Positions 35,013 through 54,957 of a DNA stretch of 64,000 bases are shown here, one piece after another (the first letter of the stretch is position 1; each line of letters starts with the position of its first letter). The position numbers and the translations under genes were made by a program. Source of the stretch: an uncultured Gammaproteobacteria bacterium. Its GTDB lineage: Bacteria > Patescibacteriota > Microgenomatia > UBA8517. The notes under the pieces were generated by a model that saw nothing but the letters and a program-made list of their open reading frames with translations, did not search any database and was not told where the DNA came from. Where the stretch lies: the NCBI GenBank assembly GCA_964396785.1, contig CAYNFU010000001.1:943-64942 (forward strand). Direction: 5' to 3'.

Positions 35013-36623
35013 TTAATCAACCTTTCCTATTTCCCAGTAGTACTCCTGATAATCACTGACAGGCGGGTTAATTATAGTAGAGATTGGCTGAGAAAAGAAT
35101 CTGCTACGAAATTCTAAAGGATCTATCCAGAGAACAAGATATTTTTTACTCTCTAAAACTTCATAACCTACTTTTTTCAGCTCATCCCCAGAATATTTTT
35201 TGTCAAAAGTAACCTGAGAAAAAATATATCCCTTACTCGGGATTGTTTCTTTGAGAATTTCTAAGTTAGGTTCAATTCCATAGAAAAATTTTAAATGAAT
35301 TGGAACCTCATAGAGCCACTCCCAATTGTTTATATTTTCTTTTGCATTAACAAATATTTTTTCTCCATTGTATTTTGCTATTAGCCTAACCTGTTCCCTT
35401 TCGAATTGTGTAACCAGAAGAAACCGGCTCTGATAGTTTACAGTTTTGGCCAGATTTAAAGGAAAACCCCTCAAAAAAAGTCCCAATACAATAACTATTA
35501 AAGCAGCATTGAAAAAAACACGCATTTTCTCATTTTTTACTTGGAAGAAATATTTCCGAAAGATTTTTACAGCTTGGTCAAACAAAAACATTGTAAAAAT
35601 AATTATTCCGAAAACCGCTACAAGCTGATATCTCTCCAAAACAAATTCCCACGGAAAAAGGATCACTGTAAAAAATAATGCAAAAAAACCCCAAAAATAC
35701 ACTCTGCCAACCTTAAATTCCACCCTCGCTGTTTTATTAAGCATTAAGAGTACTAACAAAATAAGGGATATCTTAAAAAATGGGGATAGAGAATTTGAAA
35801 GAAGCACCAAGTTTTCCTTTGATTTTGCAATAATTGCTCCCAAGCTAGTTACGTAGTTACTCGTATAGAGTGGTATCTCTGTTGAAATAGTCGAAGACAA
35901 AAATCTAGTAATAGTTATTCCTGCAAGAAGAATAATAAAAGGTATGCCAGCTAATAAACTTGCCCTTTTAAAAGCTTTTTTGCCAAAAACCAAGATTTCA
36001 GTAATGAAAATTGTCGGCAAAATGGCGATATTACTCTCCTTTATTAAAACAGTAATGGTTAGAATAAAAATCGGGACCCAAGGGATTTTAGTTCTTCTAT
36101 CTCTTCTCACCAAAGTGTGAAGATAAATAAGAGAAAATGCTGCAAGAAACAATATCTGGTATGGCTCATTTGTACCAAGACGAATTATGTTCTCACTAAG
36201 AGAATAATTAGTTGCAAATAGGAGTGCTCCGCCGATAACGAATACGGAGCTCACACTCAAATCGAGTAGGGCTAGTGACAGTAGTATTACTGCGGCATAT
36301 CCGACCACATATACTCTAAAAATGTGGTGCAGCTGAGCATTATTTCGAAACACCTCATAGACAATATTATTTATAAGCCAATAAGTCGGCCTGAACCGAC
36401 TTGTCCCGAACTCAAAAGTCTGGTCTATAAATTTGGAGCATTTTAATCTTAAAACACAATCTTCTAAATATGAGGAGCTTTGAATTAAAACTTGCCCGTC
36501 ATCTACCAGAGAAAAATTGGTGAGCTTCCATGGTTTAAGAAAAATCGATGCGTATAAGAAATAAAAAACTGTAATAATCATCAACACCAGAAGGTTATTT
36601 TTTACTAGAGGTGGAATTCTCAC
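35013..36623 (-). CDS. Polytopic membrane protein, unknown family. Paralog of the protein at 31945..33528.
   Basis: 536 aa. See the shared motifs listed for 31945..33528. It has about 12 TM helices and a C-terminal soluble domain. Confidence 0.6.
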   Translation of the reverse strand: MRIPPLVKNNLLVLMIITVFYFLYASIFLKPWKLTNFSLVDDGQVLIQSSSYLEDCVLRLKCSKFIDQTFEFGTSRFRPTYWLINNIVYEVFRNNAQLHHIFRVYVVGYAAVILLSLALLDLSVSSVFVIGGALLFATNYSLSENIIRLGTNEPYQILFLAAFSLIYLHTLVRRDRRTKIPWVPIFILTITVLIKESNIAILPTIFITEILVFGKKAFKRASLLAGIPFIILLAGITITRFLSSTISTEIPLYTSNYVTSLGAIIAKSKENLVLLSNSLSPFFKISLILLVLLMLNKTARVEFKVGRVYFWGFFALFFTVILFPWEFVLERYQLVAVFGIIIFTMFLFDQAVKIFRKYFFQVKNEKMRVFFNAALIVIVLGLFLRGFPLNLAKTVNYQSRFLLVTQFEREQVRLIAKYNGEKIFVNAKENINNWEWLYEVPIHLKFFYGIEPNLEILKETIPSKGYIFSQVTFDKKYSGDELKKVGYEVLESKKYLVLWIDPLEFRSRFFSQPISTIINPPVSDYQEYYWEIGKVD

Positions 36624-38181: not shown

Positions 38182-39666
38182 TTAATAACCTAAAAATTGT
38201 CTTGATTTAAGTCTGATGCCTCCTTCTTGAGAACCTTCTAAACTTGAATAACTTGCGCTAATTTCTCCTTTCCAAAACACTTCAAAATAATTCTGGTCGG
38301 ATAAAACTACTTTAAGCAATGCCGTAGGGCTCCAGGGCAAATCTCTATCTTCTTGAGTATCGTAAAAAGCAACACTCTTAACACCCGATACTAATTCCTT
38401 GTTTTTCAATAAGTAGTCATGCACATTTTTGGCAGTATAACCTCCTCTGGTAATCCAATGTGTTTTCTTTGTGAGACCAATTGTCATAAAAGAAAGTATA
38501 AGCCAGATAATCATAAATAGGGATGCAACAAAATACTGTCTTTTAGCGGTAAGGAGATAGGAAATAATGATTACTATTCCTATTAGGGGTAAGGTCAGAT
38601 AAAAGGTGAACTTGTGAAGGGGAAGAAAAAGAACAGGAAGCAAAGTAACAAAAAACCAGGCTATACAAAAGATAAACAAATTTAATAAATTGCGCTTTGT
38701 AAACAAATTCTTGATGTTCCTAAAAACTTTGTAGAGAAGAATTATTACTGCTCCGGAGAATAAAATAAAAATCGGAATTATCTCCTTTGACCAGAATTTA
38801 AAGAGATTGGGATTAAACTTTAGACCAGGTCCTACAAAATCCACGAGCATCTCAGGCAAATTGAATGCCCAGAGGCCGTACCAACCAAAGGTATTAAAAA
38901 GTCTTCTGATTGAGAAGTCCCAAAGGTAACTGTCTCCCGTGGCAAAGCCGTAATAGCTTACGCGCATATAGAGATAGACTGCAAGAATTAAGAGAAAGGG
39001 TATGAGTGAGGTCAGGAGTTCACCAAGCTTCAATTTATTTTTCTTTTGTTTTTTCATTAACCAATAAATAGGGATAAATATCATGGGCAAAACAACGGCG
39101 GTTTCCTTTGAAAGTAAGCTCAAAATAAATGTCATAATACTAAAAACTAAATGCTTTTTATCAGACTTCTCTAGAAATTCAATAAAAAATAATACCGAAA
39201 GAATGAAAAACAACGTCATCCCTAACTCCTGAAACGTGGCTAAATAATAAAGATGGCCGAAGTGGGAAGCACTTGTTGCATACAAAAACGCAGCAATTAA
39301 TGGGATTTTATCCGTTGTCCGAGGTTCGAAGTTAGACAATAACATTTTGGTCAATCTGTAGGTAAGATAGGTAACTGCAAAAAATACAATAAAAGAAATT
39401 ATATGAAGGCCGAGTGGATAAAAGTTAAAAAGCTTCCAAGCCAGAAAATAAAAAACTTGAGTGGTTAAAGGCCGATACATTCCCAAACCGTCTGGTCCCT
39501 GGGTCAGATTAAAGAAGTTCAAAAATTCTTTGAGAGAGCCTGCTTGGGAAATTTTGAGTAAGAAAAAATCGTCATGGGTGTAAAAAGTAAACAGTGAAGG
39601 AAAATAAAGAACAAAGGAAATGAAAAGGATAATAAATAGGTATTTAGTCGACCGAAAAAATTTCAT
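38182..39666 (-). CDS. Polytopic membrane protein, unknown family (possible GT-C-like)
   Basis: 494 aa with about 12 TM helices. The first loop is FYTHDDFFLLKISQAGSLKEF. The short C-terminal soluble domain is GEISASYSSLEGSQEGGIRLKSRQ. Confidence 0.5.
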   Translation of the reverse strand: MKFFRSTKYLFIILFISFVLYFPSLFTFYTHDDFFLLKISQAGSLKEFLNFFNLTQGPDGLGMYRPLTTQVFYFLAWKLFNFYPLGLHIISFIVFFAVTYLTYRLTKMLLSNFEPRTTDKIPLIAAFLYATSASHFGHLYYLATFQELGMTLFFILSVLFFIEFLEKSDKKHLVFSIMTFILSLLSKETAVVLPMIFIPIYWLMKKQKKNKLKLGELLTSLIPFLLILAVYLYMRVSYYGFATGDSYLWDFSIRRLFNTFGWYGLWAFNLPEMLVDFVGPGLKFNPNLFKFWSKEIIPIFILFSGAVIILLYKVFRNIKNLFTKRNLLNLFIFCIAWFFVTLLPVLFLPLHKFTFYLTLPLIGIVIIISYLLTAKRQYFVASLFMIIWLILSFMTIGLTKKTHWITRGGYTAKNVHDYLLKNKELVSGVKSVAFYDTQEDRDLPWSPTALLKVVLSDQNYFEVFWKGEISASYSSLEGSQEGGIRLKSRQFLGY

Positions 39667-40451
39667 CGAATCCCTAAAATGTTTAGAGTAATTATGCGTC
39701 CTAAATTATGTAAATAATGGAGCATAAGAATAACTTGATTACTAGTATGTTTCTCTACAATCTTCTCGTCCTCAAATAATATCTTCTTAAATTCGGTCGT
39801 CGATATTGAACCTCTTGAAAGACGAAAACCAGATAAAACGTTATCCAGTATTTTTGGCATCTTAGCTTTCCCCAATCTTAACCACATTTCATACTCCGTG
39901 ACTCCAGTAGCTGTTCCTGTAAAAGGTCCATAATTTTTATAAGCACTTTTACTTAAAAAGACAGATGGTTGAAAAAGGTAGTTGACACAAAGTAGCCAGG
40001 AATAATTATTTAGCTTCAAAAGATAATTTTTGTAGGAATCTACCCAAGAAGCAATTTCGTTCCCATTCTCGTCTATCGTTTTTCCCCTTCCTGCAAGCCA
40101 CAAGGTATTTGGATGTTTTGCAAAATACTCTCCAACTTCTCTTAAGACGCCATCCTGATAAACGTCGTCGGCATTAAGATAGGTTAATATTTCTCCACTT
40201 ACCTCCTTAAGTCCTTTGTTTATTGCATCCTTCTGCCCTTCTCCTCTCTTTTCTAGCCAGCTGATAAGTTTAGGGTATTTTTGAGCGTATTTTTTTATAA
40301 CTTCCTGGGTTCCGTCATTCGAGCCTCCGTCCCGGATTATTACTTCCAGATTTGGATATTTCTGGTCAATAATTGACTGAAAGGTAGAACCAATAAAGTC
40401 TACTTTATTAAATGAAGGAATTACTATAGAAATTTTGGGTAAAGCTGCCAT
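39663..40451 (-). CDS. Glycosyltransferase family 2
   Basis: 262 aa. ISIVIPSFNKVDFIGSTFQSIIDQKYPNLEVIIRDGGSNDGT ... YLNADDVY (DxD). Confidence 0.8.
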   Translation of the reverse strand: MAALPKISIVIPSFNKVDFIGSTFQSIIDQKYPNLEVIIRDGGSNDGTQEVIKKYAQKYPKLISWLEKRGEGQKDAINKGLKEVSGEILTYLNADDVYQDGVLREVGEYFAKHPNTLWLAGRGKTIDENGNEIASWVDSYKNYLLKLNNYSWLLCVNYLFQPSVFLSKSAYKNYGPFTGTATGVTEYEMWLRLGKAKMPKILDNVLSGFRLSRGSISTTEFKKILFEDEKIVEKHTSNQVILMLHYLHNLGRIITLNILGIR

Positions 40452-40454
40452 TCA

Positions 40455-40796
40455 TTACTCGTTCTTCTTTTTTAATCCCTTAAGGGCTTCTTTTCTAATA
40501 AATCTTTCGAATTTCTTTTCTATTCTTCTAGTCCTTACATAGGCTAATGCTACCATGGTAATCACCAAAACTAGCCCTCCCATTATCATTAGATCAAGAA
40601 GTCTTGAGATAAAAAACGTTTGAGCAATGCCCCGCAGTGTATCAGGAAAAAGAACCGTATAAAGGGCACTTCCCCATGCTCCCATCCAAATGGTTATCTC
40701 AATTTTATTTAGTTCTTTTCTCCTGAAGTTCACATAAGCTAAGTAGACCATGACCATGGCAAAAATTATCGCAACAAATTGTAGGCCTAATATCAT
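40455..40796 (-). CDS. Small membrane protein (2-3 TM) sandwiched between GT2 genes. DUF2304/GtrA-like candidate.
   Basis: 113 aa. MILGLQFVAIIFAMVMVYLAYVNF ... LLDLMIMGGLVLVITMVALAYV. It ends in a basic tail (RRIEKKFERFIRKEALKGLKKKNE). Its position directly downstream of a GT2 gene is typical of small accessory membrane proteins that partner polyprenyl-P-sugar synthases. Confidence 0.45.
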   Translation of the reverse strand: MILGLQFVAIIFAMVMVYLAYVNFRRKELNKIEITIWMGAWGSALYTVLFPDTLRGIAQTFFISRLLDLMIMGGLVLVITMVALAYVRTRRIEKKFERFIRKEALKGLKKKNE

Positions 40797-41440
40797 CTTA
40801 ATTTAAACTGAATAATTTCAAATATAATTCCAAACCCCTGTTCAATGCTTAAACCCTTAAACTTATCATAGTATAGTGTAGCCACGGGCACCTCGCAATT
40901 TTTGAGATGGTGTTTGCCAGTTAAAGCTACGATTTCAGTTTCGACACTATAACCCGAAGAATACCATCTAATTTTCTCGAAAGACCTCCTGGTAAAAGCT
41001 TTAAACCCACAGAGAATATCTTGGGCATTAATCCCATAAAGAATACTTACAATAGTAGTTATCAATTTGTTACCCAAGAGTCTAACCAGGGGGATTTTCC
41101 CAAAATTCCTTACCCCAAAAACAACGTCGCATATTTTAAGGGCTTTAACAAACTTCGGAAGATCGCTAGCCTTGTGCTGTCCATCTGAGTCCATAAGAAT
41201 AACTGCTTCCGCCCCAAGCTTAAATGCAGCCAGGCAACCCGTTTTTAATGCAGCCCCCTTACCAAGGTTAATAGAATGCCTTAGAACGTAGGGAGTATAT
41301 CTTTTAGCAATTTGCGAGGTTTTATCCTTCGACCCATCGTCTATTACAATAAACGGAAATTTCTGATCTTTAACATCTGATAACACTTTCCCAATTCTTT
41401 TCTCTTCATTAAATGCCGGAATTACAATAAATATTTTCAT
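40793..41440 (-). CDS. Glycosyltransferase family 2 (DPM1/GtrB-like soluble domain)
   Basis: 215 aa. MKIFIVIPAFNEEKRIGKVLSDV...FIVIDDGSKDKT ... VILMDSDGQH (DxD-Q motif typical of DPM1-like GT2). Confidence 0.8.
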   Translation of the reverse strand: MKIFIVIPAFNEEKRIGKVLSDVKDQKFPFIVIDDGSKDKTSQIAKRYTPYVLRHSINLGKGAALKTGCLAAFKLGAEAVILMDSDGQHKASDLPKFVKALKICDVVFGVRNFGKIPLVRLLGNKLITTIVSILYGINAQDILCGFKAFTRRSFEKIRWYSSGYSVETEIVALTGKHHLKNCEVPVATLYYDKFKGLSIEQGFGIIFEIIQFKLR

Positions 41441-42195
41441 TTCTTTAATCTAAAAAATAAGCCTACTGTGTCAATAAACATTTTTATAGAAGCACTAAAA
41501 ATCTTAGAAGAAGTGTCAAGGGTTGAAGACTTCTCCGCCTTAACCATTTTGACAAATATCGGGGCTTCATGAATTTTCTTATAACCCAAAATATTCGCCT
41601 GCATCAGTACCTCTATATCGAAAGCGAATCCGTTTATATGAAGACGGGGAAGTATTTTTTTAACTACACTTCCTTTGAAGATTTTTACTCCAGCTTGGGT
41701 ATCTGTCACCTTTGGCCTAAAAAGAATCTTAACCAGGAAATAATAAATAACTGAAATAATTTGCCTAAGGGTAGGATATTCAACTTTTGAGTTTGGGTGT
41801 CTTTTTGAACCAACAACAATATCAGCGTTTTCCTTTTTTTGAACCTCAAGAAGCTTAACTATACTTTCTGGATCTATCTCAAGTCCCGCGTCAATAAAAC
41901 CTACCAATTTCCCCCGAGCTTTCATCATTCCATATCTCACCGCATATCCCTTGCCCCTATTATTTTTATAACTCAAAACTTTGATTTTTCGATTTTTCTC
42001 AGTAAGTTCTTTTACCAAACTAAAAGTATCGTCAACTTTTCCGTCAACTACACAAATTATTTCGTAGCTATTCGTAAGCCTTCCCAGTACTAAATCAACT
42101 TCCTTAACACTTTTTACAATAAAGCTCTCGGCTTTATATGCAGGAATAATGATAGACAAGTGGGGCTTATGTAATAATCCCTTTCCCATGCCCAA
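41437..42195 (-). CDS. Glycosyltransferase family 2 (DPM1-like)
   Basis: 252 aa. LSIIIPAYKAESFIVKSVKEV...YEIICVVDGKVDDT ... GFIDAGLE. Confidence 0.8.
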   Translation of the reverse strand: MGMGKGLLHKPHLSIIIPAYKAESFIVKSVKEVDLVLGRLTNSYEIICVVDGKVDDTFSLVKELTEKNRKIKVLSYKNNRGKGYAVRYGMMKARGKLVGFIDAGLEIDPESIVKLLEVQKKENADIVVGSKRHPNSKVEYPTLRQIISVIYYFLVKILFRPKVTDTQAGVKIFKGSVVKKILPRLHINGFAFDIEVLMQANILGYKKIHEAPIFVKMVKAEKSSTLDTSSKIFSASIKMFIDTVGLFFRLKK

Positions 42196-42205
42196 AGTAT
42201 ATCAC

Positions 42206-43354
42206 TTAGGAAACCCAATAGCCTCGGCTGAAGAGAGCACAAGCGAGAGCAAGAAGGACTCCCGAAATGCAATATACTGCTATTTTTAACCCCCTCGGCT
42301 TTTTATTGAGCCAAATCGCCGAAAGTAAAAAAGCCGGAAAAAGAATAAGAACATAACGAGGAAAAGATGAAAAGCTTCCTGAAAGAGGGGGGATTAAATA
42401 TCCTACAGCAAAAAACAAAGAGTAACTAAGTCTTAATTTAAAAAACGACCATATTCCAAGAATCCCAAATATAATTCCAGAAGCAATCTCTAGATATGTG
42501 GTGAACACTATCGGAAAATAATTGTAATTAAGGTTTGGCAAAACCTTGAAAAAATATCTATAAAAAACTTGGGGTAAAAGAATTATCTCGCTTGAGCGCT
42601 GCTCGCCAAAAATTGAAACGTTGTGAAAAAATTCCAAAGGGTCTCCAACTGTTACATATAAATAGTACATATAAAGGATTAGTCCCATTGGAACAAGTGC
42701 TAATGATATGAGTGGTACTACCCAACTGCCCTTCCTATGCTTAAGAAACTTCCAAACTTCATAGCCAATAGCCGGAATTAAAGCAAGAGCTGTAATTCTT
42801 GTTGCTGTTGCAAAAGCTCCAAGAACTCCTGCAAAAATCCAACTGCCTTTTCTTGCAAAGAAAAAAGACCAAATAATCAGCGCAAATACCAACCCCTCAG
42901 TATAGAAGGCACCGAAATAAAATGACGTCGGAAAAAAGATTAGTAAAAGTATAGTCATTTTTGCAATATTCTCTTTATAATCCAGACGAATTAATTTCCA
43001 CAAGCCAAAAAGACCAATTAAAAACGCTAGGTTCGATACCAATAATCCCGATATAGCTATTGTTATGAATTCGCTACTTACCAAAAATGCAATCAGTCTG
43101 GTGAGAATTGGGAGGAGGGGAAAAAAGAAATAAGTCAGAGGCTGATAGCCTAGATGTGCAATTGCCGCATAGTGTTCTCCATCAAAGTTCAAAAAACTCC
43201 AAAAATAAGGATTTTGTAAATAGTTTGTTAGTCCCCCACCGAGGAAATCTTTTTGGAGAGGAAAAAGGGCAATCCCCAAAAATACAATCAAAAAAAGTGC
43301 TATCCTCCATAAGATAAAGGAGGTAAGAATGAATTTACTTCCCTCAAGTCTCAT
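42206..43354 (-). CDS. Polytopic membrane protein, putative GT-C mannosyltransferase of the PIG-V/GT76-like type
   Basis: 382 aa with about 10 TM helices. The first loop is WSFLNFDGEHYAAIAHLGYQP, which resembles the W-x-x-F-D-x-x-H-[FY]-x-x-I-A-x-x-G-Y motif of Mannosyl_trans2 (PIG-V) proteins. It lies immediately downstream of two DPM1-like GT2 genes. Confidence 0.5.
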   Translation of the reverse strand: MRLEGSKFILTSFILWRIALFLIVFLGIALFPLQKDFLGGGLTNYLQNPYFWSFLNFDGEHYAAIAHLGYQPLTYFFFPLLPILTRLIAFLVSSEFITIAISGLLVSNLAFLIGLFGLWKLIRLDYKENIAKMTILLLIFFPTSFYFGAFYTEGLVFALIIWSFFFARKGSWIFAGVLGAFATATRITALALIPAIGYEVWKFLKHRKGSWVVPLISLALVPMGLILYMYYLYVTVGDPLEFFHNVSIFGEQRSSEIILLPQVFYRYFFKVLPNLNYNYFPIVFTTYLEIASGIIFGILGIWSFFKLRLSYSLFFAVGYLIPPLSGSFSSFPRYVLILFPAFLLSAIWLNKKPRGLKIAVYCISGVLLALACALFSRGYWVS

Positions 43355-44397
43355 TTGGTTAAAACTTTTTTGTATACTTCGAGTGTCTCTTTGGCTGTTT
43401 TATCCCAAGAATAATTTTTAACTAATGCCTTGCCTCTTTCTACCAATTGGTCCTTGAGCTCTCTATCATTCGACACTTGAGAAATTTTTTCTGCAATATC
43501 TTTTGGGTCTTTGGGGTCAGCAAAGTAAGCCGCTGGTTCTCCTATCTCAACCAAAGCCTGGGTTCTGCTCGCAACCACAGGGCATTCGGAAGCATATGCC
43601 TCAAGTACCGGGAGTCCAAATCCTTCATAAAAAGATGGCTGGCAATAGAGGCTTGCCAAATTGTAAATGGCAGCCAAATCATCATCCGGCACAAAACCCA
43701 CCCTCATAATATCTTTATCCTCCCCGTACTTTTGTAGAAGATTAGCTAATGGTTTATTTTCGGGGTGATTCCTATCGAAATCTTCTTTTGCCGCCTGCTT
43801 ACCGGCAATCACAAGCGGAATTTTTGCAATTTTGCACGCTTGGGCTAGTCCCAACAAATTTTTATTGTAATTAACGTCACCCACGTAAAGCACGAATTTT
43901 TGGGGGAGTTTATATTTCACTACGATACTACTTAATATCGTAGTATTTGTCATCTTCTTGAAAATTTCTCGTGGGGCTAAGTAGACCACATGAATTTTTT
44001 CTTGGGGAATACCCAAGAATCTGACTATATCTTTCTTTGAAGTTTCTGAAACGGTAATTATGGCATCCATCTTCTTAACCAGCTCCCTTTGAATTAAAAA
44101 TCTTAATTTACCCTTGATTCCCGCTGGATAGTGTTTAGGATAAATAAGATAAATCAGGTCGTGGATGGTAAGAATAGATGGAATGGATTTTGTGAAGGGA
44201 ACGCTAAAAAAATAGGGGTGAAATTTTTGATAATGGACGATATCGTACTTTGTTAAATCGTTCCTGGCCGCATCTACCAAATCCAAATCAACATCTTTTA
44301 ATTTTTTAAGATGTTTAACCAACTGCTCTGTGTAGAAACCTATTCCCCTCCCCACATCGCCTTTTGACATGGGTCCGGCGTCAATTGCTATCTTCAT
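43351..44397 (-). CDS. Glycosyltransferase, GT4 / group 1 family. The start is reassigned to the internal ATG (MKIAIDAG) so that it overlaps the upstream stop by 4 bp.
   Basis: The ORF track gives 43351..44517, but the first 40 codons overlap the upstream gene. MKIAIDAGPMSKGDVGRGIGFYTEQL is a typical GT4 N-terminus. C-terminal CQPSFYEGFGLPVLEAYASECPVVAS carries the EX7E motif. Confidence 0.75.
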   Translation of the reverse strand: MKIAIDAGPMSKGDVGRGIGFYTEQLVKHLKKLKDVDLDLVDAARNDLTKYDIVHYQKFHPYFFSVPFTKSIPSILTIHDLIYLIYPKHYPAGIKGKLRFLIQRELVKKMDAIITVSETSKKDIVRFLGIPQEKIHVVYLAPREIFKKMTNTTILSSIVVKYKLPQKFVLYVGDVNYNKNLLGLAQACKIAKIPLVIAGKQAAKEDFDRNHPENKPLANLLQKYGEDKDIMRVGFVPDDDLAAIYNLASLYCQPSFYEGFGLPVLEAYASECPVVASRTQALVEIGEPAAYFADPKDPKDIAEKISQVSNDRELKDQLVERGKALVKNYSWDKTAKETLEVYKKVLTK

Positions 44398-45252: not shown

Positions 45253-46530
45253 TTATCTCGATTGTATCACCATATTTGCTACTTTTTCTCCAAGCTCAAC
45301 TGCATAATTGGTCCCTCTATCCCAAGGATAAACCTGCTGGATATTTGCAAGATATAGTCCCTCAATAGGAGTTATCATTCCTGGCATGAATTTTGAGTAA
45401 TTTAAAGGAATTACCGGTTGGGCGAAGGGGGCCATAAACTTATTGGCTTCTATTACCCAATTTTGCCTAAACTCCGGGTTTATCTTCTGCAAATAGGGTA
45501 AAAATAATTCAAGAAGTTCTCCCGGCTCTTTGGAGTAGAAAGGATGGTCGTGGGGAAGGTAGTTTCCAACATAGATAATGTGATCACCTCCGTAATACCT
45601 CTTATCCATAAAATTGGTGTGCTCCACAACCGCCAAAAAAGGAAACTTTTCTTCACCTACATTTAGCCAATATGTGCCGTTTTTAAGAAACTCTCTCTTT
45701 AGAATAAGCATCAGGTTAACCGCCCCAATTGCTTTAAAAGAAAGAAGTTTCTGAAGATAATCATCAGGAAAGCCCTGCACGATTTTTGCAAAAGGGGCGT
45801 AGGGAAGCGTACAGATAACTTTGTCAAATTCGAATCTTCCTTTATCGGTCAAAATTTCCAGTTTAGAATCCACCTTGGTTATTTTTTCAACCCTGGTATT
45901 GTATAAGATCCTTCCTTTATTCTGCCTGATTAATGCGTCAAGCCGCATCGCAAATTTTAAAAATCCTCCCTCGGGGTATCCAAGATTTGAGCTTCTTTTT
46001 TTAATTCTTGCCCAAAACCACGAGGCTGGTATCTGGTCTGCAAAATGACTGAATTTTTTTTCAAAAAGTGGCCTCCATAGCGTATCCCAGGCTTTCTTGC
46101 CATTATATTTTGTCAGAAACTCCTTCGCGGTTACTTTTTCAAGAGGTTTCCAAAAAGGGGTAAGCTTTAAATAAGCCAAAATTGCCCCCGTGCGAATTCT
46201 ATCGGGAAGTGACAGCTTATCAAATAGCATAAGGCTTTGAGGGGAGTCTATCTGGTAGATTGAGCCGTCAATGAAGGTCGAAGTTTTAGTCGGCAAATAA
46301 ATATATTTCTGTCCCGTCTCTTTAGCCAAATTTCGAATTGCGAAGTCCGAATAAAACCAATGATGATAATGCTTCTCCAAGCTCCATTTCCAACCCTTCT
46401 TAGTAAAGCCCACTGCAAGTCCGCCGGGATATCCTTCCCCTTCAAAGATAGTTACGTCAAGTCCTTGCTTAGTTAGTCTATAGGCTGCGGCCAACCCAGT
46501 GAATCCCGCACCGATTATTCCAATATTCAT
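45253..46530 (-). CDS. FAD/NAD(P)-binding oxidoreductase (amine-oxidase / protoporphyrinogen-oxidase-like fold)
   Basis: 425 aa. N-terminal MNIGIIGAGFTGLAAAYRLTKQGLDVTIFEGEGYPGGLA is the GxGxxG dinucleotide-binding fold followed by the GG motif of flavin amine oxidases. The substrate is unknown. Confidence 0.7.
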   Translation of the reverse strand: MNIGIIGAGFTGLAAAYRLTKQGLDVTIFEGEGYPGGLAVGFTKKGWKWSLEKHYHHWFYSDFAIRNLAKETGQKYIYLPTKTSTFIDGSIYQIDSPQSLMLFDKLSLPDRIRTGAILAYLKLTPFWKPLEKVTAKEFLTKYNGKKAWDTLWRPLFEKKFSHFADQIPASWFWARIKKRSSNLGYPEGGFLKFAMRLDALIRQNKGRILYNTRVEKITKVDSKLEILTDKGRFEFDKVICTLPYAPFAKIVQGFPDDYLQKLLSFKAIGAVNLMLILKREFLKNGTYWLNVGEEKFPFLAVVEHTNFMDKRYYGGDHIIYVGNYLPHDHPFYSKEPGELLELFLPYLQKINPEFRQNWVIEANKFMAPFAQPVIPLNYSKFMPGMITPIEGLYLANIQQVYPWDRGTNYAVELGEKVANMVIQSR

Positions 46531-46535
46531 TTTTT

Positions 46536-48149
46536 CTAGTTAGCGACAGCCTCGAAATAAAGATATCCGTTTTCTCCGTATATCCTTTTAACAATATTTG
46601 CCTCATTCGGTATTTCCTCGTCGGTTCCGACAATTAAGCTTCCTAGGTTTTGGGGCTTTAGGCTGTCAAAGTCTATCGGGACAAATTCGTAATTACCAAA
46701 ACTCCTCACCGTTGAAAATCCATATTTATCTTTGGCCGAAAGGCTATGCTCCTCCTGGAATCTTTGGGGTGGGTATTTTAAATAAAAAAGAAAAAGAATA
46801 TAAGGCTGGTCGTAGCGATCCGTAACTATTATCTTCTGGTTCTCTTTCTCCTTAATATAGTCTACCAACTCCTTTACCCCATACTGCGAGGAGAAGGGAA
46901 ACTCTTTGGCCATATGGACCCAATACATGTGTTCGTACCTAGCAAAACCCCAGATAATAAGAAGGGAAAGCGCCAAATAACCCCAAGATCGAATTTTCCT
47001 AAGGCCCCTAAACCATGAGAGGATTGTAATAAGCCCGTATGCACTGATTACTGTTAGTGGAATCACCATGTTTTGGGCTCTTAGGGCGTGGGGAGATTGA
47101 AAAGTGAGAGCAGCTGCCGTTGGAGCCAGAACTAGCCACATCAAAATCGCTCCCCACCCTCTGGGTCTAACGGCAATTGCCATAAGACCGAAAGTTAAGA
47201 AAATTAAGTCAAATAAATACATCTGCCCGGTCTCGGGCACCTTATTTCTCTCTATTTTATCCCCAGTAAGAAATAGAAATTCACCCCAGAAATGCTGTGA
47301 ATAGTTTAAGCCGAATGCCAATGAATAGTTAACCACCTTGTTGTGAAGGACTTTTGGCAAAAGAGCTAAATAGTCTGGGTGTTCCCCTCGCTGTTCATTT
47401 ATTCTTGCAAGTGGCCCAGGGTCTGCAAAAAGCCCAACCCCTGCCGCACGCGACCTGACCTCACCTTTGGCAAAATCGGCTCCTAAAGGAAGAAGCAGGA
47501 TAAGCGCAACCAAGCCGGAAACGGCAAATTTTCTGATATTGGGTTGTATTTCCTTTCGATAAATAAAACTAAGTCCGATAACAAGGAGAGGCACAACTAC
47601 TCTTGCGGCGTGGTAGGTATAGAAAGCGCTTACGAAGGCGAGTGTGCTAAAAACATATAATTTTGGATTATTTAAGGCCTTTAAAAATAACCATAAGCCT
47701 AGTGTAATGAAAAAAGTCGCAACATTAACCTCCCAGGCTCCTCTTGAGAAATGAATGTGCCAAGGAGAAATTGCCAGGAACAGGCTTGAGGCGAGTGCAA
47801 GTTTTTCATTTTTGAAAAGCTCCTTTACCAGAAGATAAAGGATTAGTACCGTCCCTACCCCAAGTGCTGCCCCCGGAATCCTAACCGCCCACTCGTTTAA
47901 TCCCAACACTTTTACAAAAGGCAGAACAAGATAAAAATAAAACCCTGGTTTGTAATCGTTGAACGACTGAAAATGGATGGGCCAGGCATTCCCGTGCTCG
48001 TCTTTTCCTGTTTCTACTAGAGAGTAGGCATTATAGCCAATTGCAGCCTCATCTGCGTTAAGTGCCGGAAAAGAATCAAGCCTCCAAAACCGTAAAAAGG
48101 AAGCTAACAGTAATATTAAAAAAAGTAGTAACCTTGTTTTTCTTAACAT
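46536..48149 (-). CDS. GT-C-fold membrane glycosyltransferase, GT39 (PMT/ArnT)-like. Tandem paralog 1.
   Basis: 537 aa with about 11 TM helices. The first loop is NADEAAIGYNAYSLVETGKDEHGNAWP. The conserved C-terminal soluble domain is WVHMAKEFPFSSQYGVKELVDYIKEKENQKIIVTDRYDQPYILFLFY. Confidence 0.75.
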   Translation of the reverse strand: MLRKTRLLLFLILLLASFLRFWRLDSFPALNADEAAIGYNAYSLVETGKDEHGNAWPIHFQSFNDYKPGFYFYLVLPFVKVLGLNEWAVRIPGAALGVGTVLILYLLVKELFKNEKLALASSLFLAISPWHIHFSRGAWEVNVATFFITLGLWLFLKALNNPKLYVFSTLAFVSAFYTYHAARVVVPLLVIGLSFIYRKEIQPNIRKFAVSGLVALILLLPLGADFAKGEVRSRAAGVGLFADPGPLARINEQRGEHPDYLALLPKVLHNKVVNYSLAFGLNYSQHFWGEFLFLTGDKIERNKVPETGQMYLFDLIFLTFGLMAIAVRPRGWGAILMWLVLAPTAAALTFQSPHALRAQNMVIPLTVISAYGLITILSWFRGLRKIRSWGYLALSLLIIWGFARYEHMYWVHMAKEFPFSSQYGVKELVDYIKEKENQKIIVTDRYDQPYILFLFYLKYPPQRFQEEHSLSAKDKYGFSTVRSFGNYEFVPIDFDSLKPQNLGSLIVGTDEEIPNEANIVKRIYGENGYLYFEAVAN

Positions 48150-49004
48150 CTATTTGACTAACAATAAACCCAAAAAACCCAAAAAGGATCCTGCAATCTT
48201 CCAAATAATTCTCTTTCTTTCATTAAGAAAAAGAATCGCAAAAATCACAGTTACAACAACACCTATGGAATTTAAAGAAATTACTTGTGATGAATTTTCC
48301 GCAATCTGCAACGCATAGAAAAACAAAATTGCAGACGCTGCATAGAATAAACTTAAAGTCGCCATTCTAACAAATGTCCCCTTCACTAGAAAAACTTTCA
48401 TTTTTTTAATACTGCCGGAGTAAAATACTAGAACCGACAATGCTGGAAGGACAAATGCAAGGAATGAGTAAGGGAAAACATCAAAGTGCCCAAGGAGAAA
48501 TCTGTCGTTAACCACAGAGAACCCGAAAAACATTGCAGCCAGAAGAGAATAAATTTCTTTAAAAGAGAATTTAATTTTCCTTTTTTCCAAAGATACAATT
48601 ACTGCAGCAGAAAGGATAAGCAACGTACCTATCCATTGTGAAACTGTAAGACTTTCTTTCATTAAAAGCGAAAAAGCCAAAATTGCAAAAATTGCTCTGG
48701 AACTAAAGATAACAGAAAATTTTGACGCTTCGGTTCTTTTTAGTGCTTTAAACACAAAAATATTACCAAGTGCATAAAGAACTATCATTATTAAAAAGTT
48801 TAATATCAAAGGCTTGAAATCAGGGTACTTCATTGTGGTAAATAAATATCCAAAAATCCCTATCATAAGGCCTGTTAAAAGTTGGAAGAAAGAAGCATAA
48901 GCCACCGGATCACTATCCTTCTCCCTGACCAGTATTCTCTGCAGTAATACAGAGATAGAATAACAAATAACGCTCAAGATAATTAGTATTTGCCAAGTCA
49001 CCAT
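48150..49004 (-). CDS. EamA / DMT-superfamily transporter (10 TM, two EamA repeats)
   Basis: 284 aa. The two approx. 140 aa halves each carry an EamA-type helix pattern (…ALGNIFVFKALKRTEASKFSVIFSSRAIFAILAFSLL… / …LFYAASAILFFYALQIAENSSQVISLNSIGVVVTVIFAILFL…). It lies inside the GT-C paralog array. Confidence 0.7.
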   Translation of the reverse strand: MVTWQILIILSVICYSISVLLQRILVREKDSDPVAYASFFQLLTGLMIGIFGYLFTTMKYPDFKPLILNFLIMIVLYALGNIFVFKALKRTEASKFSVIFSSRAIFAILAFSLLMKESLTVSQWIGTLLILSAAVIVSLEKRKIKFSFKEIYSLLAAMFFGFSVVNDRFLLGHFDVFPYSFLAFVLPALSVLVFYSGSIKKMKVFLVKGTFVRMATLSLFYAASAILFFYALQIAENSSQVISLNSIGVVVTVIFAILFLNERKRIIWKIAGSFLGFLGLLLVK

Positions 49005-50671
49005 TATTTGGCCTCCATTATTAAATATGCCAGTGACCCGTCTGGCCTAAGAACTTCTTTAAGAATTGAATAGTCGCTTATAACTTGTTTTCTTGGGGCA
49101 ACTATCTCATCGGCAACAACGATAGTTCCAGTCGGATACTTGTATGGCCAACTCAAATACTGAAACTTTAGGTGTTTAAACTCACTTACAAGCCCCACGT
49201 CGCCGACGCTGCTTGACTCATAAACTGCGCTCTCCCAAAATTCTTGAGGGTCCCTTTTATCGTAAAAAAGAAAATATATAAAGGGCTGGGCGTATGACTG
49301 CTGGAAAACTACTTGTCGTGAATTAAGGTTCGACTCTTTTAAATATTGAACCGCCTCCCTGTAACCGAATTCCCAATATTTAGCCCCGTGCTTTGGAAGA
49401 TGTACGTAATAGGAATCTAGGTAGTATATATAGTTAAGAAAATATAATGCCACAAATCCCCATATAGCAATTCTTTTCAAATAATTCTTAGACAAATTGG
49501 CAAATAAGCCATGAAGGGCAAGCGAAGAAATAATAATCAAGGGAATTGCCATATGAAGACTCCTTACCCCATGAACGGGGTCTCTCGACAATATTGAAGG
49601 AACGGGTGCCAAAACAAGCCACAAAAGGAGGAATAAGAAATATTTGTTCTTAAGGCTTCGGATAAATAATATAAGTCCTGCAAGAATTAGAACGGAGTCT
49701 GCCAGAAGAAACATTCCCATATTTATCGAATTGTGTCTCGGGTTATTCCAATCACCCTCAAAAAAAAGAAATCTTCCCGAAAAATGGTTAAACCACTTTC
49801 CCATTATTACCCTAACCCAGTTAAGAGACTCCGAATGAAAAGCCAAATAAGTAGCTCCTCCTGGCTTCTCGCCACCCTGCTCCAGTATTTCTTTTATATC
49901 TGTCTCACTTCTCGGATATGAGAATGTGCTTACCACCGTAAGCCTTCCTGCGTAACCGGTGTAAACGCTTATTAAAATTGGCAAACTAATAATAATTCCT
50001 ACCCCAAAAGACCCCAGAAGCACTTTTTTGTCAAATCTTATTAAATTTTTGAAAAATAGTAGTCCGAGAAGTAAAACTACAATTGGAGTTGAAAGCTTGG
50101 CCCCCTGATAGCTAATGAGTGTTAGTCCGAAAAAAATTGCAGAGGCAAAAAGAAATCTGTTCTTTTCAAAAGATTTCATGAAGAAATAAATGCCGATAAG
50201 GGTCAGGCAAAAGGCGAGGTTAGGTACCCAGGCACCTCTGGAAAAATGTATAAGCCAGGGGTTGGTAGCTGCCAAGAAACCGGAAAATAGGGCAATACTC
50301 TCGAAATTTTTGTATTTAGCCTTTTCAAAAATTATCCTGGCTAAATGGAAGACAAAATAAACAATTATTACCCCGAAAATGGCGTTAGGGAGCCGAACGC
50401 TCAATTCATTTAAACCCATCACCCCAATAAACGGTGCAGCCAAATAGACGTAGAGCCCCGGAGTGTAATCTCCAAAAGACTTAAACACGATTGGCAAAGA
50501 CTCTCCCCAGAAATCTTTGCCTGTTTTTAATATTGAATAAGCGTTATATCCCAAAGCTACCTCATCGGAAGTCAGATGAGGAGGTATCGTCCCCAACTTC
50601 CAAAGCCTAAGAAATGCCGCCAAAAAAAGTATAAATAGGAGAATGGTTGTTGTATTAATAAATCGCTTCAT
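49004..50671 (-). CDS. GT-C-fold membrane glycosyltransferase, GT39-like. Tandem paralog 2.
   Basis: 555 aa. The first loop is HLTSDEVALGYNAYSILKTGKDFWGESLP. The C-terminal domain is YVHLPKHGAKYWEFGYREAVQYLKESNLNSRQVVFQQSYAQPFIYFLFY. Confidence 0.75.
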   Translation of the reverse strand: MKRFINTTTILLFILFLAAFLRLWKLGTIPPHLTSDEVALGYNAYSILKTGKDFWGESLPIVFKSFGDYTPGLYVYLAAPFIGVMGLNELSVRLPNAIFGVIIVYFVFHLARIIFEKAKYKNFESIALFSGFLAATNPWLIHFSRGAWVPNLAFCLTLIGIYFFMKSFEKNRFLFASAIFFGLTLISYQGAKLSTPIVVLLLGLLFFKNLIRFDKKVLLGSFGVGIIISLPILISVYTGYAGRLTVVSTFSYPRSETDIKEILEQGGEKPGGATYLAFHSESLNWVRVIMGKWFNHFSGRFLFFEGDWNNPRHNSINMGMFLLADSVLILAGLILFIRSLKNKYFLFLLLWLVLAPVPSILSRDPVHGVRSLHMAIPLIIISSLALHGLFANLSKNYLKRIAIWGFVALYFLNYIYYLDSYYVHLPKHGAKYWEFGYREAVQYLKESNLNSRQVVFQQSYAQPFIYFLFYDKRDPQEFWESAVYESSSVGDVGLVSEFKHLKFQYLSWPYKYPTGTIVVADEIVAPRKQVISDYSILKEVLRPDGSLAYLIMEAK

Positions 50672-50680: not shown

Positions 50681-52453
50681 CTAATTTTCTAAAATCTCAA
50701 AGGCGGGTTTGCCGTCTAAGAAATTTATGGTTTTTAGTTTATTCCAGTTAGCTCTGTAACTCCCTGGGCTTGTAATTAACAAACATCTGGTTTCTTGCGC
50801 CTTACAGCTGACAATTCCGCCACTTTCGAGCGTAAAATCATCATTTGGCCCGGGAGTAATTTGCCAATCGTTTACGAAATAAAATTTATCGAATCTATCC
50901 ACCCAATACCAGTCTGATTGATGAAATCGTATCAGATTTGGGTCAGCTTTATATTTGGCCGGGTCCCAAGGCCAAAAGAACAAGAAGAATTCGTGGGGTT
51001 CTCCGTATTTCTTTGTAATTATTATTTTATCGTACTTTTGATAATTGTCCCTAGCATAATCAACTGCTTGCCTATATCCGTATTGCCAGGACCAAGAATA
51101 TTCTTCGGGATAGAGAGTAAAATAGTTCGTTAAATAACTTTTGGCAAGGAAAAATATTCCGACACAATAAAGTGTAAAAAAAATAAACTTAGTCGCGGGG
51201 TTTCCCTTTTTAGTTATTAAATCGTAGACAAAAAATAACCCAATTGCGGCTAAGATCTGAGGTAAGGGAAGCATGACAGAGGCGCGAGTCACGGCAAAAT
51301 GTTCACTAGTTATACTTCCGGCAATAGGGGAAAGCGCAAGCCAGGCCAAAAGTAACAGGTAGTCTTTATCTCCCTTAAAAGATTTCTTAAGAAGAATATA
51401 AATTCCCAAATAAAAAAACGGCAAATTGATTAAATAGGAGAGACCTTTCCCAGGAAGGCTATATTGAAACTGTGTTCCGCCGGATAAAAAGAGAAACTGC
51501 GGCGATAAATATTCTAGATAATTACGGCTAAAATGATAAATAAGATAGGTTGGTCTGTTGTAAATAAGTTTGGGGAGGGGTTGAGGTAAGGAAGAGGAGA
51601 GCCTGCCTTCCTCAATACTTGCAATCGCCCCCTCATTTATAATAAAAAGCCACTTGGCTCTCGCTCTTGCGGAGGGTTCTAAAAGAATTGCCCCGGCCAA
51701 GACGAAAAAGGCAATTAGCGCCGATATAGAAACTATGGGGATGAAGCTTTCCCTTTTTATTAAATTTTTAAATTCGCCACGATATATAACCAGGGTCGCA
51801 ACTAGTATAAGTGGAGAAAATATTCTGGTTGAGTGATAGGAAAAAAGCGACAGAAAAAGAAAGGCAAGTGAAAGTGGAAGTAAGTATTTCTTTTTATCTC
51901 TATTAAAAAAGGCAGCCGCCGACGCAGTAAGCAAAAAAATCGAAAGGTTTTGTTGTAAAACTACTCTTGAGGTAAATAATGTCCACGGCTCAATAGCTAC
52001 TAGAAAAGAAGAAAGAAGGGCTAATTCCCTGCGTTTAGTTAGTCCCATTGCAAGGAAATACGTGGCAACTGTCGTAAGAACGCCTAAAACTGCATGGGGA
52101 AATCTGATTGCAAATTCGTTAAGCCCAAAAACCAGTATTGAAGGGATGGTCATATAGAGATTTAGGGGCAAAGGATAATCGCCGTAGGCTCGAAAATTGA
52201 CAACGGGTAAGGCCTGCCCCCATTCGTCTGCTCCCGTTTTCAATATCGAATAGGCGTTATAGCCGTGCGAAACCTCATCCCAATTAACTGCAGGGGGGAA
52301 ATCTGAAAGGTTAATGAGCCTAAGGGCGGCCGCCAAGACCAAGACCAGAAAAAGGAGCTTGTTTTCCAAAAACAAACCCCAACCCTTCTTAAAAAGAGTC
52401 CTCATAGCAAAATTATATCTTCGCAAAGTCAAAAAGTCGAAGAAGTAGTACAA
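50681..52453 (-). CDS. GT-C-fold membrane glycosyltransferase, GT39-like. Tandem paralog 3. The true start is probably the internal ATG (MRTLFKK, approx. 52405).
   Basis: 590 aa ORF. The first loop is NWDEVSHGYNAYSILKTGADEWGQALP. The C-terminal domain is YPEEYSWSWQYGYRQAVDYARDNYQKYDKIIITKKYGEPHEFFLFFW. The ORF-track start overlaps the upstream gene by 25 nt. Confidence 0.75.
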   Translation of the reverse strand: MYYFFDFLTLRRYNFAMRTLFKKGWGLFLENKLLFLVLVLAAALRLINLSDFPPAVNWDEVSHGYNAYSILKTGADEWGQALPVVNFRAYGDYPLPLNLYMTIPSILVFGLNEFAIRFPHAVLGVLTTVATYFLAMGLTKRRELALLSSFLVAIEPWTLFTSRVVLQQNLSIFLLTASAAAFFNRDKKKYLLPLSLAFLFLSLFSYHSTRIFSPLILVATLVIYRGEFKNLIKRESFIPIVSISALIAFFVLAGAILLEPSARARAKWLFIINEGAIASIEEGRLSSSLPQPLPKLIYNRPTYLIYHFSRNYLEYLSPQFLFLSGGTQFQYSLPGKGLSYLINLPFFYLGIYILLKKSFKGDKDYLLLLAWLALSPIAGSITSEHFAVTRASVMLPLPQILAAIGLFFVYDLITKKGNPATKFIFFTLYCVGIFFLAKSYLTNYFTLYPEEYSWSWQYGYRQAVDYARDNYQKYDKIIITKKYGEPHEFFLFFWPWDPAKYKADPNLIRFHQSDWYWVDRFDKFYFVNDWQITPGPNDDFTLESGGIVSCKAQETRCLLITSPGSYRANWNKLKTINFLDGKPAFEILEN

Positions 52454-54108: not shown

Positions 54109-54957
54109 TTAGGGTCTAGTATTTAAAAATATCTGAATGACTATTAGAAAATAAAAGAGAATAAATACTGAAGTTGCTGCAATCTTTAGCCTCGTATTTT
54201 TATTTTTCAACACTAAAGACGAAACGTATTCAATTCCCAAAATCCCACAAGCCGCAATGAAGGGGAACAAAATAAAAGGCTCTATATTTGGAGAAAAGTT
54301 CCCTACTACTAAATATATAATTGGTAAAACAAATCCCAGAGCTATCAAACTTAAGTTTTTTCGAAAGTTAATTGCGAAAAATCCAATAAGAAAAAGGGGT
54401 AGGAGTATATACGGAAATTTTTCCAACTCGGTAATCCCCACTCTCTCATTGGGATGGTTTGCAAAAAAATATAAATTGGGATCAAGAACCTCACCCAAAT
54501 TATGTTGAAGTCGATAAAAAGTTAGGGTCTCTGGCCTTTCTTCCAACCAATGGGCGGCAGGGATCCAAATGGTTCGTGTCCCGATTGTTATTTTTACAGG
54601 AGGATATAATTTAAGTCTTTGTATCTGCAAGACTTCCTGTTGTTTATTAAGCTTAGTAAGACTTGTAAGATTTAAACCCTTTAGGCTAAAGAGAAAAAGA
54701 ACAAGATAACAAATAATTAAGAGTTTATTTAGTTTTGATTTACCTAAAGAAGTCAGTATTAAGTATGTCGATAAAATAAGGATAACTCCCACAATAAAAT
54801 TAAGAGTAAATATTCTCCAAATCCAGATGTTTCCCAAAACAACTAGAGGAAAAACGGGAGTGATACCAAGTTTTTTTACTTTCCCAAGAAAACTAAAGTT
54901 CATTTGCGTCAACAAGAATGTATGAAGGTGCGCCGTCCAGGTAGGTAAATGTCGCAA
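54109..54957 (-). CDS. Hypothetical membrane protein (approx. 6 TM) inside the GT-C array. The start is probably the internal ATG near 54903.
   Basis: 282 aa ORF. It has hydrophobic helices at both ends and a loop containing TIGTRTIWIPAAHWLEERPETLTFYRL. The ORF-track start overlaps the upstream gene by 65 nt. Confidence 0.45.
   Translation of the reverse strand: MRHLPTWTAHLHTFLLTQMNFSFLGKVKKLGITPVFPLVVLGNIWIWRIFTLNFIVGVILILSTYLILTSLGKSKLNKLLIICYLVLFLFSLKGLNLTSLTKLNKQQEVLQIQRLKLYPPVKITIGTRTIWIPAAHWLEERPETLTFYRLQHNLGEVLDPNLYFFANHPNERVGITELEKFPYILLPLFLIGFFAINFRKNLSLIALGFVLPIIYLVVGNFSPNIEPFILFPFIAACGILGIEYVSSLVLKNKNTRLKIAATSVFILFYFLIVIQIFLNTRP

Follow-up and report, generated by a model that had tools for sequence, protein, structure and literature searches.

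Three-component glycosylation systems such as Gtr (GtrA/GtrB/GtrC) combine a polyprenyl-phosphate-sugar synthase, a flippase and a GT-C glycosyltransferase that acts outside the membrane (PMC11127046). Among the closest known relatives of the system described here are also GacI/GacJ/GacK/GacL of the streptococcal group A carbohydrate side chain, mycobacterial PpgS/Rv3632/Rv3779, and PimE (GT87), the polyprenyl-phosphate-mannose-dependent mannosyltransferase of mycobacterial phosphatidylinositol mannoside (PIM) synthesis. S. pyogenes GacJ, a DUF2304 protein of 113 aa, binds GacI and raises its GlcNAc-P-undecaprenol synthase activity, and Rv3632 likewise partners PpgS, a GalNAc-P-polyprenol synthase (bioRxiv 10.1101/180810). 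Eukaryotic PIG-V/Gpi18 is mannosyltransferase II of glycosylphosphatidylinositol (GPI) synthesis (PF04188, Mannosyl_trans2; CAZy family GT76), which moves mannose in alpha-1,6 linkage from Dol-P-Man onto a GPI intermediate. Its catalytic motif D/ExE is located between transmembrane (TM) helices 1 and 2 (PMC6056205), and it has been modelled with 11 TM domains and the N terminus inside (PMC6801728). Here we analyzed a membrane protein of 382 aa encoded in a 64-kb stretch of DNA (contig CAYNFU010000001.1, hereafter the window) from a bacterium of the candidate phyla radiation (CPR). We regard it as likely that the 382-aa protein is the GT-C component of an extracytoplasmic glycosylation system of the three-component type, that it belongs to the bacterial branch closest to eukaryotic PIG-V/Gpi18, and that it is fed with polyprenyl-phosphate sugar by a family 2 glycosyltransferase (GT2) resembling dolichol-phosphate mannose synthase (DPMS) and GtrB.

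Fold and family of the 382-aa protein

The gene had been proposed in an earlier note made from the DNA alone. The open reading frame (ORF) is real, and the peptide quoted there as its first loop, WSFLNFDGEHYAAIAHLGYQP, comprises residues 52–72 (window positions 43139–43201). It is the first loop because it is located between the first TM helix (about residues 8–30) and the next membrane helices. We found 1302 homologues at E ≤ 1e-3 among 8000 candidates scored, with a best E of 2e-236 and a best identity of 97%. Moreover, a family profile matched 14,860 cluster representatives (50%-identity clusters) at E ≤ 1e-3 and 2053 at E ≤ 1e-30, among 1.84 billion. Given these numerous database homologues and profile matches, we conclude that the 382-aa protein is encoded by a real gene and not by a chance ORF. 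The family has already been labelled by public annotation pipelines, i.e., several homologues as 'Gpi18-like mannosyltransferase' at JGI and some as 'mannosyltransferase family protein' at NCBI, and the 382-aa protein is a fairly ordinary member of it.

For modelling and profile comparisons we used an alignment (A1) of 35 sequences, the window protein and 34 homologues 52–84% identical to it. AlphaFold2 with the 35-sequence alignment produced a model with a mean predicted local distance difference test (pLDDT) score of 89.4 and a predicted template modelling (pTM) score of 0.91. In a Foldseek search against the PDB, the 38 best matches were all GT-C proteins, STT3, AglB, PglB, PIG-U, ALG12, ALG9, AftA, EmbB, ArnT, ALG3, Pmt1/2, GPI-MT-I, ALG6 and PimE among them. 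As modelled, the 382-aa protein therefore has the GT-C fold (superfamily of Pfam clan CL0111). Its helices translate into 11 membrane spans with the N terminus predicted inside. In this orientation every strongly basic loop is on the cytoplasmic side (residues 1–7, 120–128, 167–172, 200–212, 305–309 and 350–356), and the density of K+R per residue, as mean over 44 diverse members, is 0.275 in inner loops versus 0.070 in outer loops. Residues 31–95, including the motif NFDGEHY, are hence predicted to be extracytoplasmic.

By sequence comparison, the nearest GT-C family is PIG-V/Gpi18 (PF04188), at whose edge the 382-aa protein stands. PF04188 was matched by 14 of the 35 A1 sequences (best E 3.9e-11), PMT_2 by 12 (best E 1.8e-7), GT87 by five and ALG10 by three; all four are members of the GT-C clan. 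Five homologues scored singly on PF04188 reached 26.4–39.6 bits, compared with a gathering threshold of 22.4 bits, and their matches span residues ~34–216 and profile positions ~44–239 of 443. The PMT_2 matches of some homologues were marginal (24.9–31.9 bits versus 26.1). The earlier note had allowed for a cytoplasmic first loop, or for a lack of PF04188 and GT-C matches; instead, the N-in model places the loop outside, homologues match PF04188, and the model has a GT-C fold.

As PIG-V comparator we used a human PIGV sequence that may differ in detail from Q9NUD9. In a check against Pfam before use, it proved to have 493 aa and to match PF04188 over its full length with 710.6 bits (E 1.5e-213), in line with the length and E-value given for PIGV_HUMAN (493 aa, E 4e-216; PMC6056205). 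Alignment of the A1 profile to this sequence with hhalign gave a probability of 85% (E 6.1e-6, 141 aligned columns, 26% identity) and paired residues 56–197 of the 382-aa protein with PIG-V residues 65–214. The first extracytoplasmic loop (EL1) carries a block common to both, [WF]-D-x-E-H-[FY]-x-x-I-A-x-x-G-Y...FFP, which pairs residue for residue (NFDGEHYaaIAhlGY...FFP with HWDAEHFlfIAehGY...FFP, i.e., FDGEHY with WDAEHF). Further downstream, two blocks of the pattern (F/S)P...Y(T/S)E and (T/G)xR also pair, FPTSFYFgafYTE with SPANVFLaagYSE and TATR with TGVR. As a control, the A1 profile was aligned to two PMT_2-type GT-C proteins of the same window, which resulted in probabilities of 0.3% and 1%. 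Within the GT-C clan, the likeness of the 382-aa protein is therefore to PIG-V in particular, and it is confined to the N-terminal ~40%.

The PIG-V/GT76 likeness proposed in the earlier note thus stands as far as the nearest family and the N-terminal part are concerned and goes no further. The 382-aa protein shares with PIG-V the GT-C fold, the predicted 11-TM N-in topology and the presence of a DPM1-like donor synthase, and its close homologues exceed the PF04188 gathering score. It differs from the 493-aa PIG-V in its shorter length, in that no more than about 140 residues are detectably alike, and in its host, a CPR bacterium for which nothing points to GPI and whose donor lipid would be a polyprenyl phosphate of bacterial type.

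Conserved residues on the predicted outer face

Conservation was read from a second set (A2) of 44 profile-selected sequences, in which the other 43 members are 30–53% identical to the window protein. Motifs were not counted in the 80 genome loci, because these had been retrieved with the patterns NFDGEH and FPTSFYF and are biased. Among the 35 close homologues of A1, N56-F57-D58-G59-E60-H61 is invariant, as it is, with this bias, in the 80 loci. In A2, Y62 is found in 44/44 sequences, F57 in 42/44 and H61 in 38/44, and position 58 is Asp in 43 and Glu in one. The FDxxHY block, which the earlier note had singled out for a check in homologues, is thus conserved. In the alignment to the PIGV comparator, D58-G-E60 pairs with D67-A-E69 in the block W66-D67-A-E69-H-F. 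D58 is a candidate for the acid that acts in catalysis or donor binding.

Loops were assigned from the AlphaFold2 helices together with the positive-inside rule. The further residues that are invariant or near-invariant in A2 (Table 1; position 186 is R or K) all map to the predicted outer side, in loops or in the outer leaflet. This placement fits the general GT-C pattern with conserved motifs in extracytoplasmic loops 1, 2, 3 and 5 (PMC6801728).

Gene order in Microgenomates

In 82 related loci, ORFs were called and each was matched to the window protein that it resembles most; counts downstream of the gene cover 81 family sequences, i.e., 80 related loci and the window. All 80 recovered genome loci (80/80) are of Microgenomates-type Patescibacteria, judged by record title or similarity, and the nearest genomic relative is Candidatus Woesebacteria bacterium RBG_16_42_24 (locus L003).

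Upstream, a family 4 glycosyltransferase (GT4) directly precedes the gene in 73 of the 75 loci with enough flank, mostly with the same 4-nt overlap as in the window, where the ATG overlaps the GT4 stop (ATGA). The GT4 is in turn preceded by a 285-aa GT2 in 61 of 67 loci, and PMT-type GT-C paralogues are found upstream in 59/67. Downstream, a Wzx-like Polysacc_synt gene overlaps the stop and is followed by an orthologue of the 252-aa GT2 of the window (44–51% identity) in 57/81 sequences; four more are cut by contig ends, so that Wzx is present in 61/81 and the GT2 orthologue in at least 57/81. The conserved core is GT2(285 aa)–GT4–382-aa protein–(Wzx)–GT2(252 aa). In 11 further sequences (plus one), the gene is directly followed by a 215-aa GT2 and DUF2304, together with a 262-aa GT2 and often a 494-aa GT-C. 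A DPMS-like GT2 is located within 3 kb downstream in 74 of 81 sequences, and in six of the other seven the contig end comes first. Both GT2 types occur in the window, L003 and L061, and in the window and L003 they stand back to back without Wzx.

When the proteins were placed on a rough neighbour-joining tree, those with the GT2+DUF2304 arrangement fell at four or more distinct points among those with Wzx+GT2. On this tree, the 215-aa GT2+DUF2304 pair has thus taken over the position of Wzx+GT2(252 aa) several times independently. Despite these gene swaps, a polyprenyl-phosphate-sugar synthase and a membrane partner, be it small or large, have always been kept beside the 382-aa protein, which we regard as the strongest contextual evidence that it consumes a locally made polyprenyl-phosphate sugar.

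The earlier note had placed the gene downstream of two GT2 genes. This is true only in plus-strand coordinates: all three genes are on the minus strand, the next gene (252-aa GT2) starts 11 nt past the stop of the 382-aa protein, and the latter is thus transcribed before both GT2 genes.

Many TPA_asm records of metagenome-assembled genomes titled 'uncultured Gammaproteobacteria bacterium' (L006, L008, L009, L012, L013 and others) hold the Microgenomates-type operon with 41–58% protein identity. Their gene order equals that of named Woesebacteria and Daviesbacteria, and the titles look like placeholder or wrong taxonomy. In four sequences (P0175, P0225, P0228 and P0243) the family forms the C-terminal domain of proteins of 606–1033 aa. 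The N-terminal part of P0175 is a PTPS_related membrane domain, whereas those of P0225, P0228 and P0243 have no assigned family. All four may be either fusions of GT-C domains in tandem or errors of gene calling. We considered them as a Rosetta-stone link to the GT2 and GT4 and rejected this, as the partners are other membrane domains; they therefore provide no linkage evidence.

Neighboring genes and the nature of the donor

Both GT2 proteins encoded next to the 382-aa protein had been described as DPM1-like. The Dol-P-Man synthase of P. furiosus (5mlz) is the best solved relative of both. For the 252-aa GT2, it scored 60 bits over residues 12–224, followed by GtrB (55 bits) and ArnC, and for the 215-aa GT2 42.6 bits, again followed by ArnC. 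It is hence fair, on sequence likeness, to call both DPM1-like at the level of enzyme class, i.e., putative polyprenyl-phosphate sugar synthases. From these adjacent genes we infer that the 382-aa protein uses a polyprenyl-phosphate-linked sugar.

The sugar itself is less clear. Mannose, named in the earlier note, is possible but unsupported, and nothing in the analysis identifies it. The 215-aa GT2 is paired with DUF2304, and since the known pairs of this kind make GlcNAc-P- or GalNAc-P-polyprenol, precedent points away from mannose for this enzyme. In the 64-kb window we saw no gene for GDP-mannose synthesis, for synthesis of other nucleotide sugars or for inositol lipids.

The earlier note had moreover regarded synthase and transferase as a self-contained module. 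This description does not hold, because the core is a five-gene order that includes GT2(285 aa), GT4 and (Wzx), and because it is embedded in an island with at least ten other GT-C genes. As listed, the GT4 ORF begins at TTG 44517 and shares 124 nt with the upstream GT2. Read from ATG 44397 (MKIAIDAG...), it encodes 348 aa, has a 4-nt overlap with the GT2 stop and compares with orthologues of 349–353 aa in L001 and L002; ATG 44397 is therefore the probable start. Searches of the PDB with the GT4 gave generic MshA-type matches to its C-terminal domain, with no PimA among the matches listed, and therefore do not support a PIM- or GPI-like acceptor.

The 215-aa GT2, DUF2304 and 262-aa GT2 genes, often together with the 494-aa GT-C gene (38182–41440, minus strand), behave as a portable module that is also found in L001, L004–L006, L026, L028, L036, L047, L056, L059, L061 and L075. 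The 494-aa GT-C accompanies the three other genes in L001, L003, L004, L006, L036, L047 and L056, and it is a candidate alternative user of the lipid-linked sugar from this module. Directly upstream of the GT2–GT4–382-aa protein core, the window encodes an FAD-dependent oxidoreductase, which is present upstream in 11 of 67 related loci. One idea is that it modifies the isoprenoid lipid carrier.

Table 1. Position of the 382-aa protein, its conserved residues and other features in the window
Feature	Position	Strand	Remarks
382-aa protein, GT-C-fold glycosyltransferase, PIG-V/Gpi18-like (PF04188-related)	42206..43354	minus	ATG start, 382 aa, 11 TM helices (predicted), N terminus inside (predicted)
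NFDGEHY block, residues 56–62, first extracytoplasmic loop	43169..43189	minus	D58 putative catalytic or donor-binding acid
Other conserved extracytoplasmic-loop/outer-leaflet residues	42341..42934	minus	E153 (EL2), R186 (EL3), D238/R253/Q262/R266 (EL4), E289 (TM8), GSFSS-x-PRY with R333 (EL5)
GT4 (retaining GT-B)	43351..44397	minus	Pfam Glycos_transf_1 E 2e-30; stop overlaps start of 382-aa protein by 4 nt
GT2, 285 aa	44394..45251	minus	not DPMS-like; best solved relatives GmaR and SunS
GT2, 252 aa, candidate DPMS/GtrB-like polyprenyl-phosphate sugar synthase	41437..42195	minus	conserved downstream partner of 382-aa protein
GT2, 215 aa, candidate PpgS/AglJ/DPMS-like polyprenyl-phosphate sugar synthase	40793..41440	minus	NCBIfam PpgS 115 bits, AglJ 99 bits, both well below equivalog cut-offs
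DUF2304 small membrane protein, 113 aa, GacJ/Rv3632-type partner of 215-aa GT2	40455..40796	minus	PF10066 E 1.8e-14
GT2, 262 aa	39663..40451	minus	travels with GT2(215 aa)+DUF2304 pair
Second GT-C, PMT_2-like, 494 aa	38182..39666	minus	PMT_2 25.7 bits; often beside GT2(215 aa)+DUF2304+GT2(262 aa)
FAD-dependent amine-oxidase/phytoene-desaturase-like oxidoreductase	45253–46530	minus	NCBIfam PRK07233 'hypothetical protein' 418 bits (above cut-off), HpnE weak
Ten PMT/PMT_2 (GT-C) proteins	3692–5197, 9885–11294, 18247–19719, 23375–24919, 38182–39666, 46536–48149, 49004–50671, 50681–52453, 54893–56578, 56575–58266		Pfam
EamA/DMT-family transporter	48150–49004	minus	between two PMT-type GT-C genes; 90% identical in L003
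Divergent Wzx-like Polysacc_synt	21324–22604	minus	
Wzy_C (O-antigen ligase/polymerase-type)	5151–6506	minus	
Two asparagine-synthase-type amidotransferases, carbamoyltransferase, hexapeptide acyltransferase	16381–18267, 58257–60086, 26783–28558, 7067–7669	plus, minus, minus, minus	
Ten proteins of 282–609 aa without Pfam match	35013–36623, 31945–33528, 30965–31948, 29635–30993, 24967–26790, 52429–54108, 54109–54957, 61686–63002, 11291–13120, 14954–16312		E ≤ 1e-4 or 1e-5
Glycan-biosynthesis island	297–63988	nearly all minus	co-directional

Proposed function and alternatives

We propose the following sequence of events. On the cytoplasmic side, polyprenyl phosphate would first be charged with the sugar of a nucleotide sugar by a DPMS/GtrB-like GT2, for which the 252-aa protein is the most likely candidate. 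The lipid-linked sugar would then be flipped across the membrane, in most relatives by the Wzx-like protein encoded between both genes; in the window, no flippase is encoded at that position. The 382-aa protein, with Asp58 in the first extracytoplasmic loop and with E153, R186, D238, R253, R266 and R333, would then pass the sugar on to an acceptor on the outer side of the cytoplasmic membrane. As acceptor, a lipid-anchored glycan or a glycolipid is probable, which the GT2(285 aa) and GT4 encoded upstream, a translationally coupled pair, would begin. Tight coupling of the gene to the 285-aa GT2, a relative of GmaR and SunS, and to a generic GT4 suggests that the acceptor is started in the cytoplasm.

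The same logic is found in the Gac and PpgS/Rv3632/Rv3779 systems, with a DPMS-like GT2, a 113-aa DUF2304 protein, a Wzx-like flippase and a GT-C. The window holds the GT2+DUF2304 pair, and most relatives hold a Wzx+GT2 pair beside the 382-aa protein, which shares the GT-C fold with GacL. Unlike the Gac-type systems, the window encodes two DPMS-like GT2s close to two GT-Cs. GtrB ranks second among the solved relatives of the 252-aa GT2. The Gtr system, however, employs GtrA/SMR or MATE flippases, whereas here the flippase is Wzx-like or absent, and Gtr is a phage-borne seroconversion cassette, whereas the 382-aa protein is fixed in a conserved chromosomal operon with GT2 and GT4.

A number of observations weigh against our proposal. 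Searches of Pfam and NCBIfam with the 382-aa protein itself gave no match even at E ≤ 1, PF04188 and PF13231 included, so that the link to PF04188 is carried by the homologues and not by the protein. The similarity to PIG-V is limited to residues 56–197; none was detected by hhalign in the C-terminal 185 residues, and full-length homology hence fails. Sequence searches of the PDB, with the single sequence and with the 35-sequence profile, gave no meaningful match, i.e., only KrKA by chance (E 0.6) and no PIG-V chain. The second acid of D-x-E is rarely kept in the wider bacterial family, since position 60 in A2 is Glu in 8/44, Val in 21 and Ile in 8 sequences; E60 is accordingly a trait of the subclade of the 382-aa protein only. 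No flippase gene adjoins the gene in the window, where the nearest candidates are the EamA and the divergent Wzx-like proteins. The island contains at least ten other GT-C genes and several DPMS-like GT2s, and the pairing of a donor enzyme with the 382-aa protein is therefore not unique.

Different functions could be considered for such a protein. It might be an oligosaccharyltransferase, ligase or polymerase working on a polyprenyl-diphosphate-linked oligosaccharide, in which case a repeat unit would be assembled by the upstream GT2 and GT4, flipped by Wzx and transferred en bloc by the 382-aa protein. Such a role would agree with the Wzx-like gene overlapping its stop in 61 of 81 sequences, with the cytoplasmic GT2 and GT4 directly upstream in nearly all loci, and with STT3, AglB and PglB as best Foldseek matches. 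However, the 382-aa protein ends six residues past TM11 and has neither a C-terminal soluble domain nor WWD in its sequence; it thus lacks the C-terminal domain with WWDYG by which STT3/PglB/AglB (GT66) are recognized. Neither the window nor the annotated related loci showed a gene for an initiating phosphoglycosyltransferase, and a DPMS-like GT2 is constantly found beside the gene. Moreover, a GacI/GacJ-type pair, typical of monophosphate-linked single sugars, can take the place of Wzx, and GacK is a Wzx-like protein that serves a polyprenyl-P-monosaccharide system. En bloc transfer is hence unlikely.

In an island so rich in GT-C genes, the 382-aa protein could also be one more divergent paralogue of the PMT_2/ArnT type (GT39/GT83-like) with no specific tie to PIG-V. 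We find this improbable in view of the very different hhalign probabilities for PIG-V and the two window PMT_2 proteins, of the larger number of homologues that match PF04188 with better E-values than PMT_2, and of the EL1 block NFDGxHY-IA-GY-FFP that pairs with PIG-V. A non-catalytic GT-C-like scaffold that binds or presents a lipid-linked glycan, as PIG-U does in GPI transamidase, is a very remote alternative: PIG-U has no acidic EL1 motif (PMC6056205), whereas position 58 is acidic in 44/44 sequences, and a whole set of charged outer-loop residues is invariant. We hence favor the 382-aa protein as a transferase that uses single sugars linked to polyprenyl phosphate.

The surrounding glycan island

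Nearly the whole window forms one co-directional glycan-biosynthesis island. Besides the ten PMT/PMT_2 proteins, it encodes about eight GT4 and about ten GT2 proteins and at least seven methyltransferases, and the array of GT-C paralogues is unusually large for a small CPR genome. Ten proteins of 282–609 aa had no Pfam match; one of them (35013–36623), a polytopic membrane protein by the look of its sequence, could be a further unrecognised GT-C-like enzyme.

A tblastn search of the window with the Wzx of a relative found nothing. We nevertheless rejected the idea that the window has no Wzx, because Pfam shows the divergent Polysacc_synt gene that tblastn had missed. This gene and a Wzy_C gene are 20–37 kb away from the 382-aa protein. 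An EamA/DMT-family transporter is encoded between two PMT-type GT-C genes. By analogy with ArnE/F, it might be a polyprenyl-phosphate-sugar flippase that stands in for the Wzx missing beside the 382-aa protein in this lineage.

The island also contains two asparagine-synthase-type amidotransferases, one of which is its only large plus-strand gene, a carbamoyltransferase and a hexapeptide acyltransferase. These enzymes suggest that sugars of the product are amidated, carbamoylated, acylated or methylated.

Implications for Microgenomates surface glycans

No new kind of system is revealed by our analysis, as fold, motif and three-component logic are all established. The 382-aa protein, however, belongs to a very large family, and its operon is strictly conserved in Microgenomates, a group with a barely described cell-surface chemistry; we found nothing specific in the literature on GT-C glycosylation in CPR/Patescibacteria. 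The recurrent exchange of two donor-supply modules at one position is good genetic evidence that the 382-aa protein depends on a locally made polyprenyl-phosphate sugar, and synteny provides a testable set of five genes for reconstitution.

To our knowledge, bacterial PIG-V relatives have never been characterised biochemically. A bolder idea, to which we give little credence at present, is that the Microgenomates cassette GT2–GT4–[PIG-V-like GT-C]–flippase–[DPM1-like GT2] builds a membrane-anchored surface glycolipid or lipoglycan in the order of events known from eukaryotic GPI and mycobacterial PIM synthesis. The GT4 would start the glycolipid inside, it would be flipped, and the PIG-V-like enzyme would extend it outside from polyprenyl-phosphate sugar. 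Only gene order and the N-terminal homology speak in its favor. If it were true, the large bacterial family, with its 14,860 clusters, would be a prokaryotic sister or the source of the GPI mannosyltransferase II lineage.

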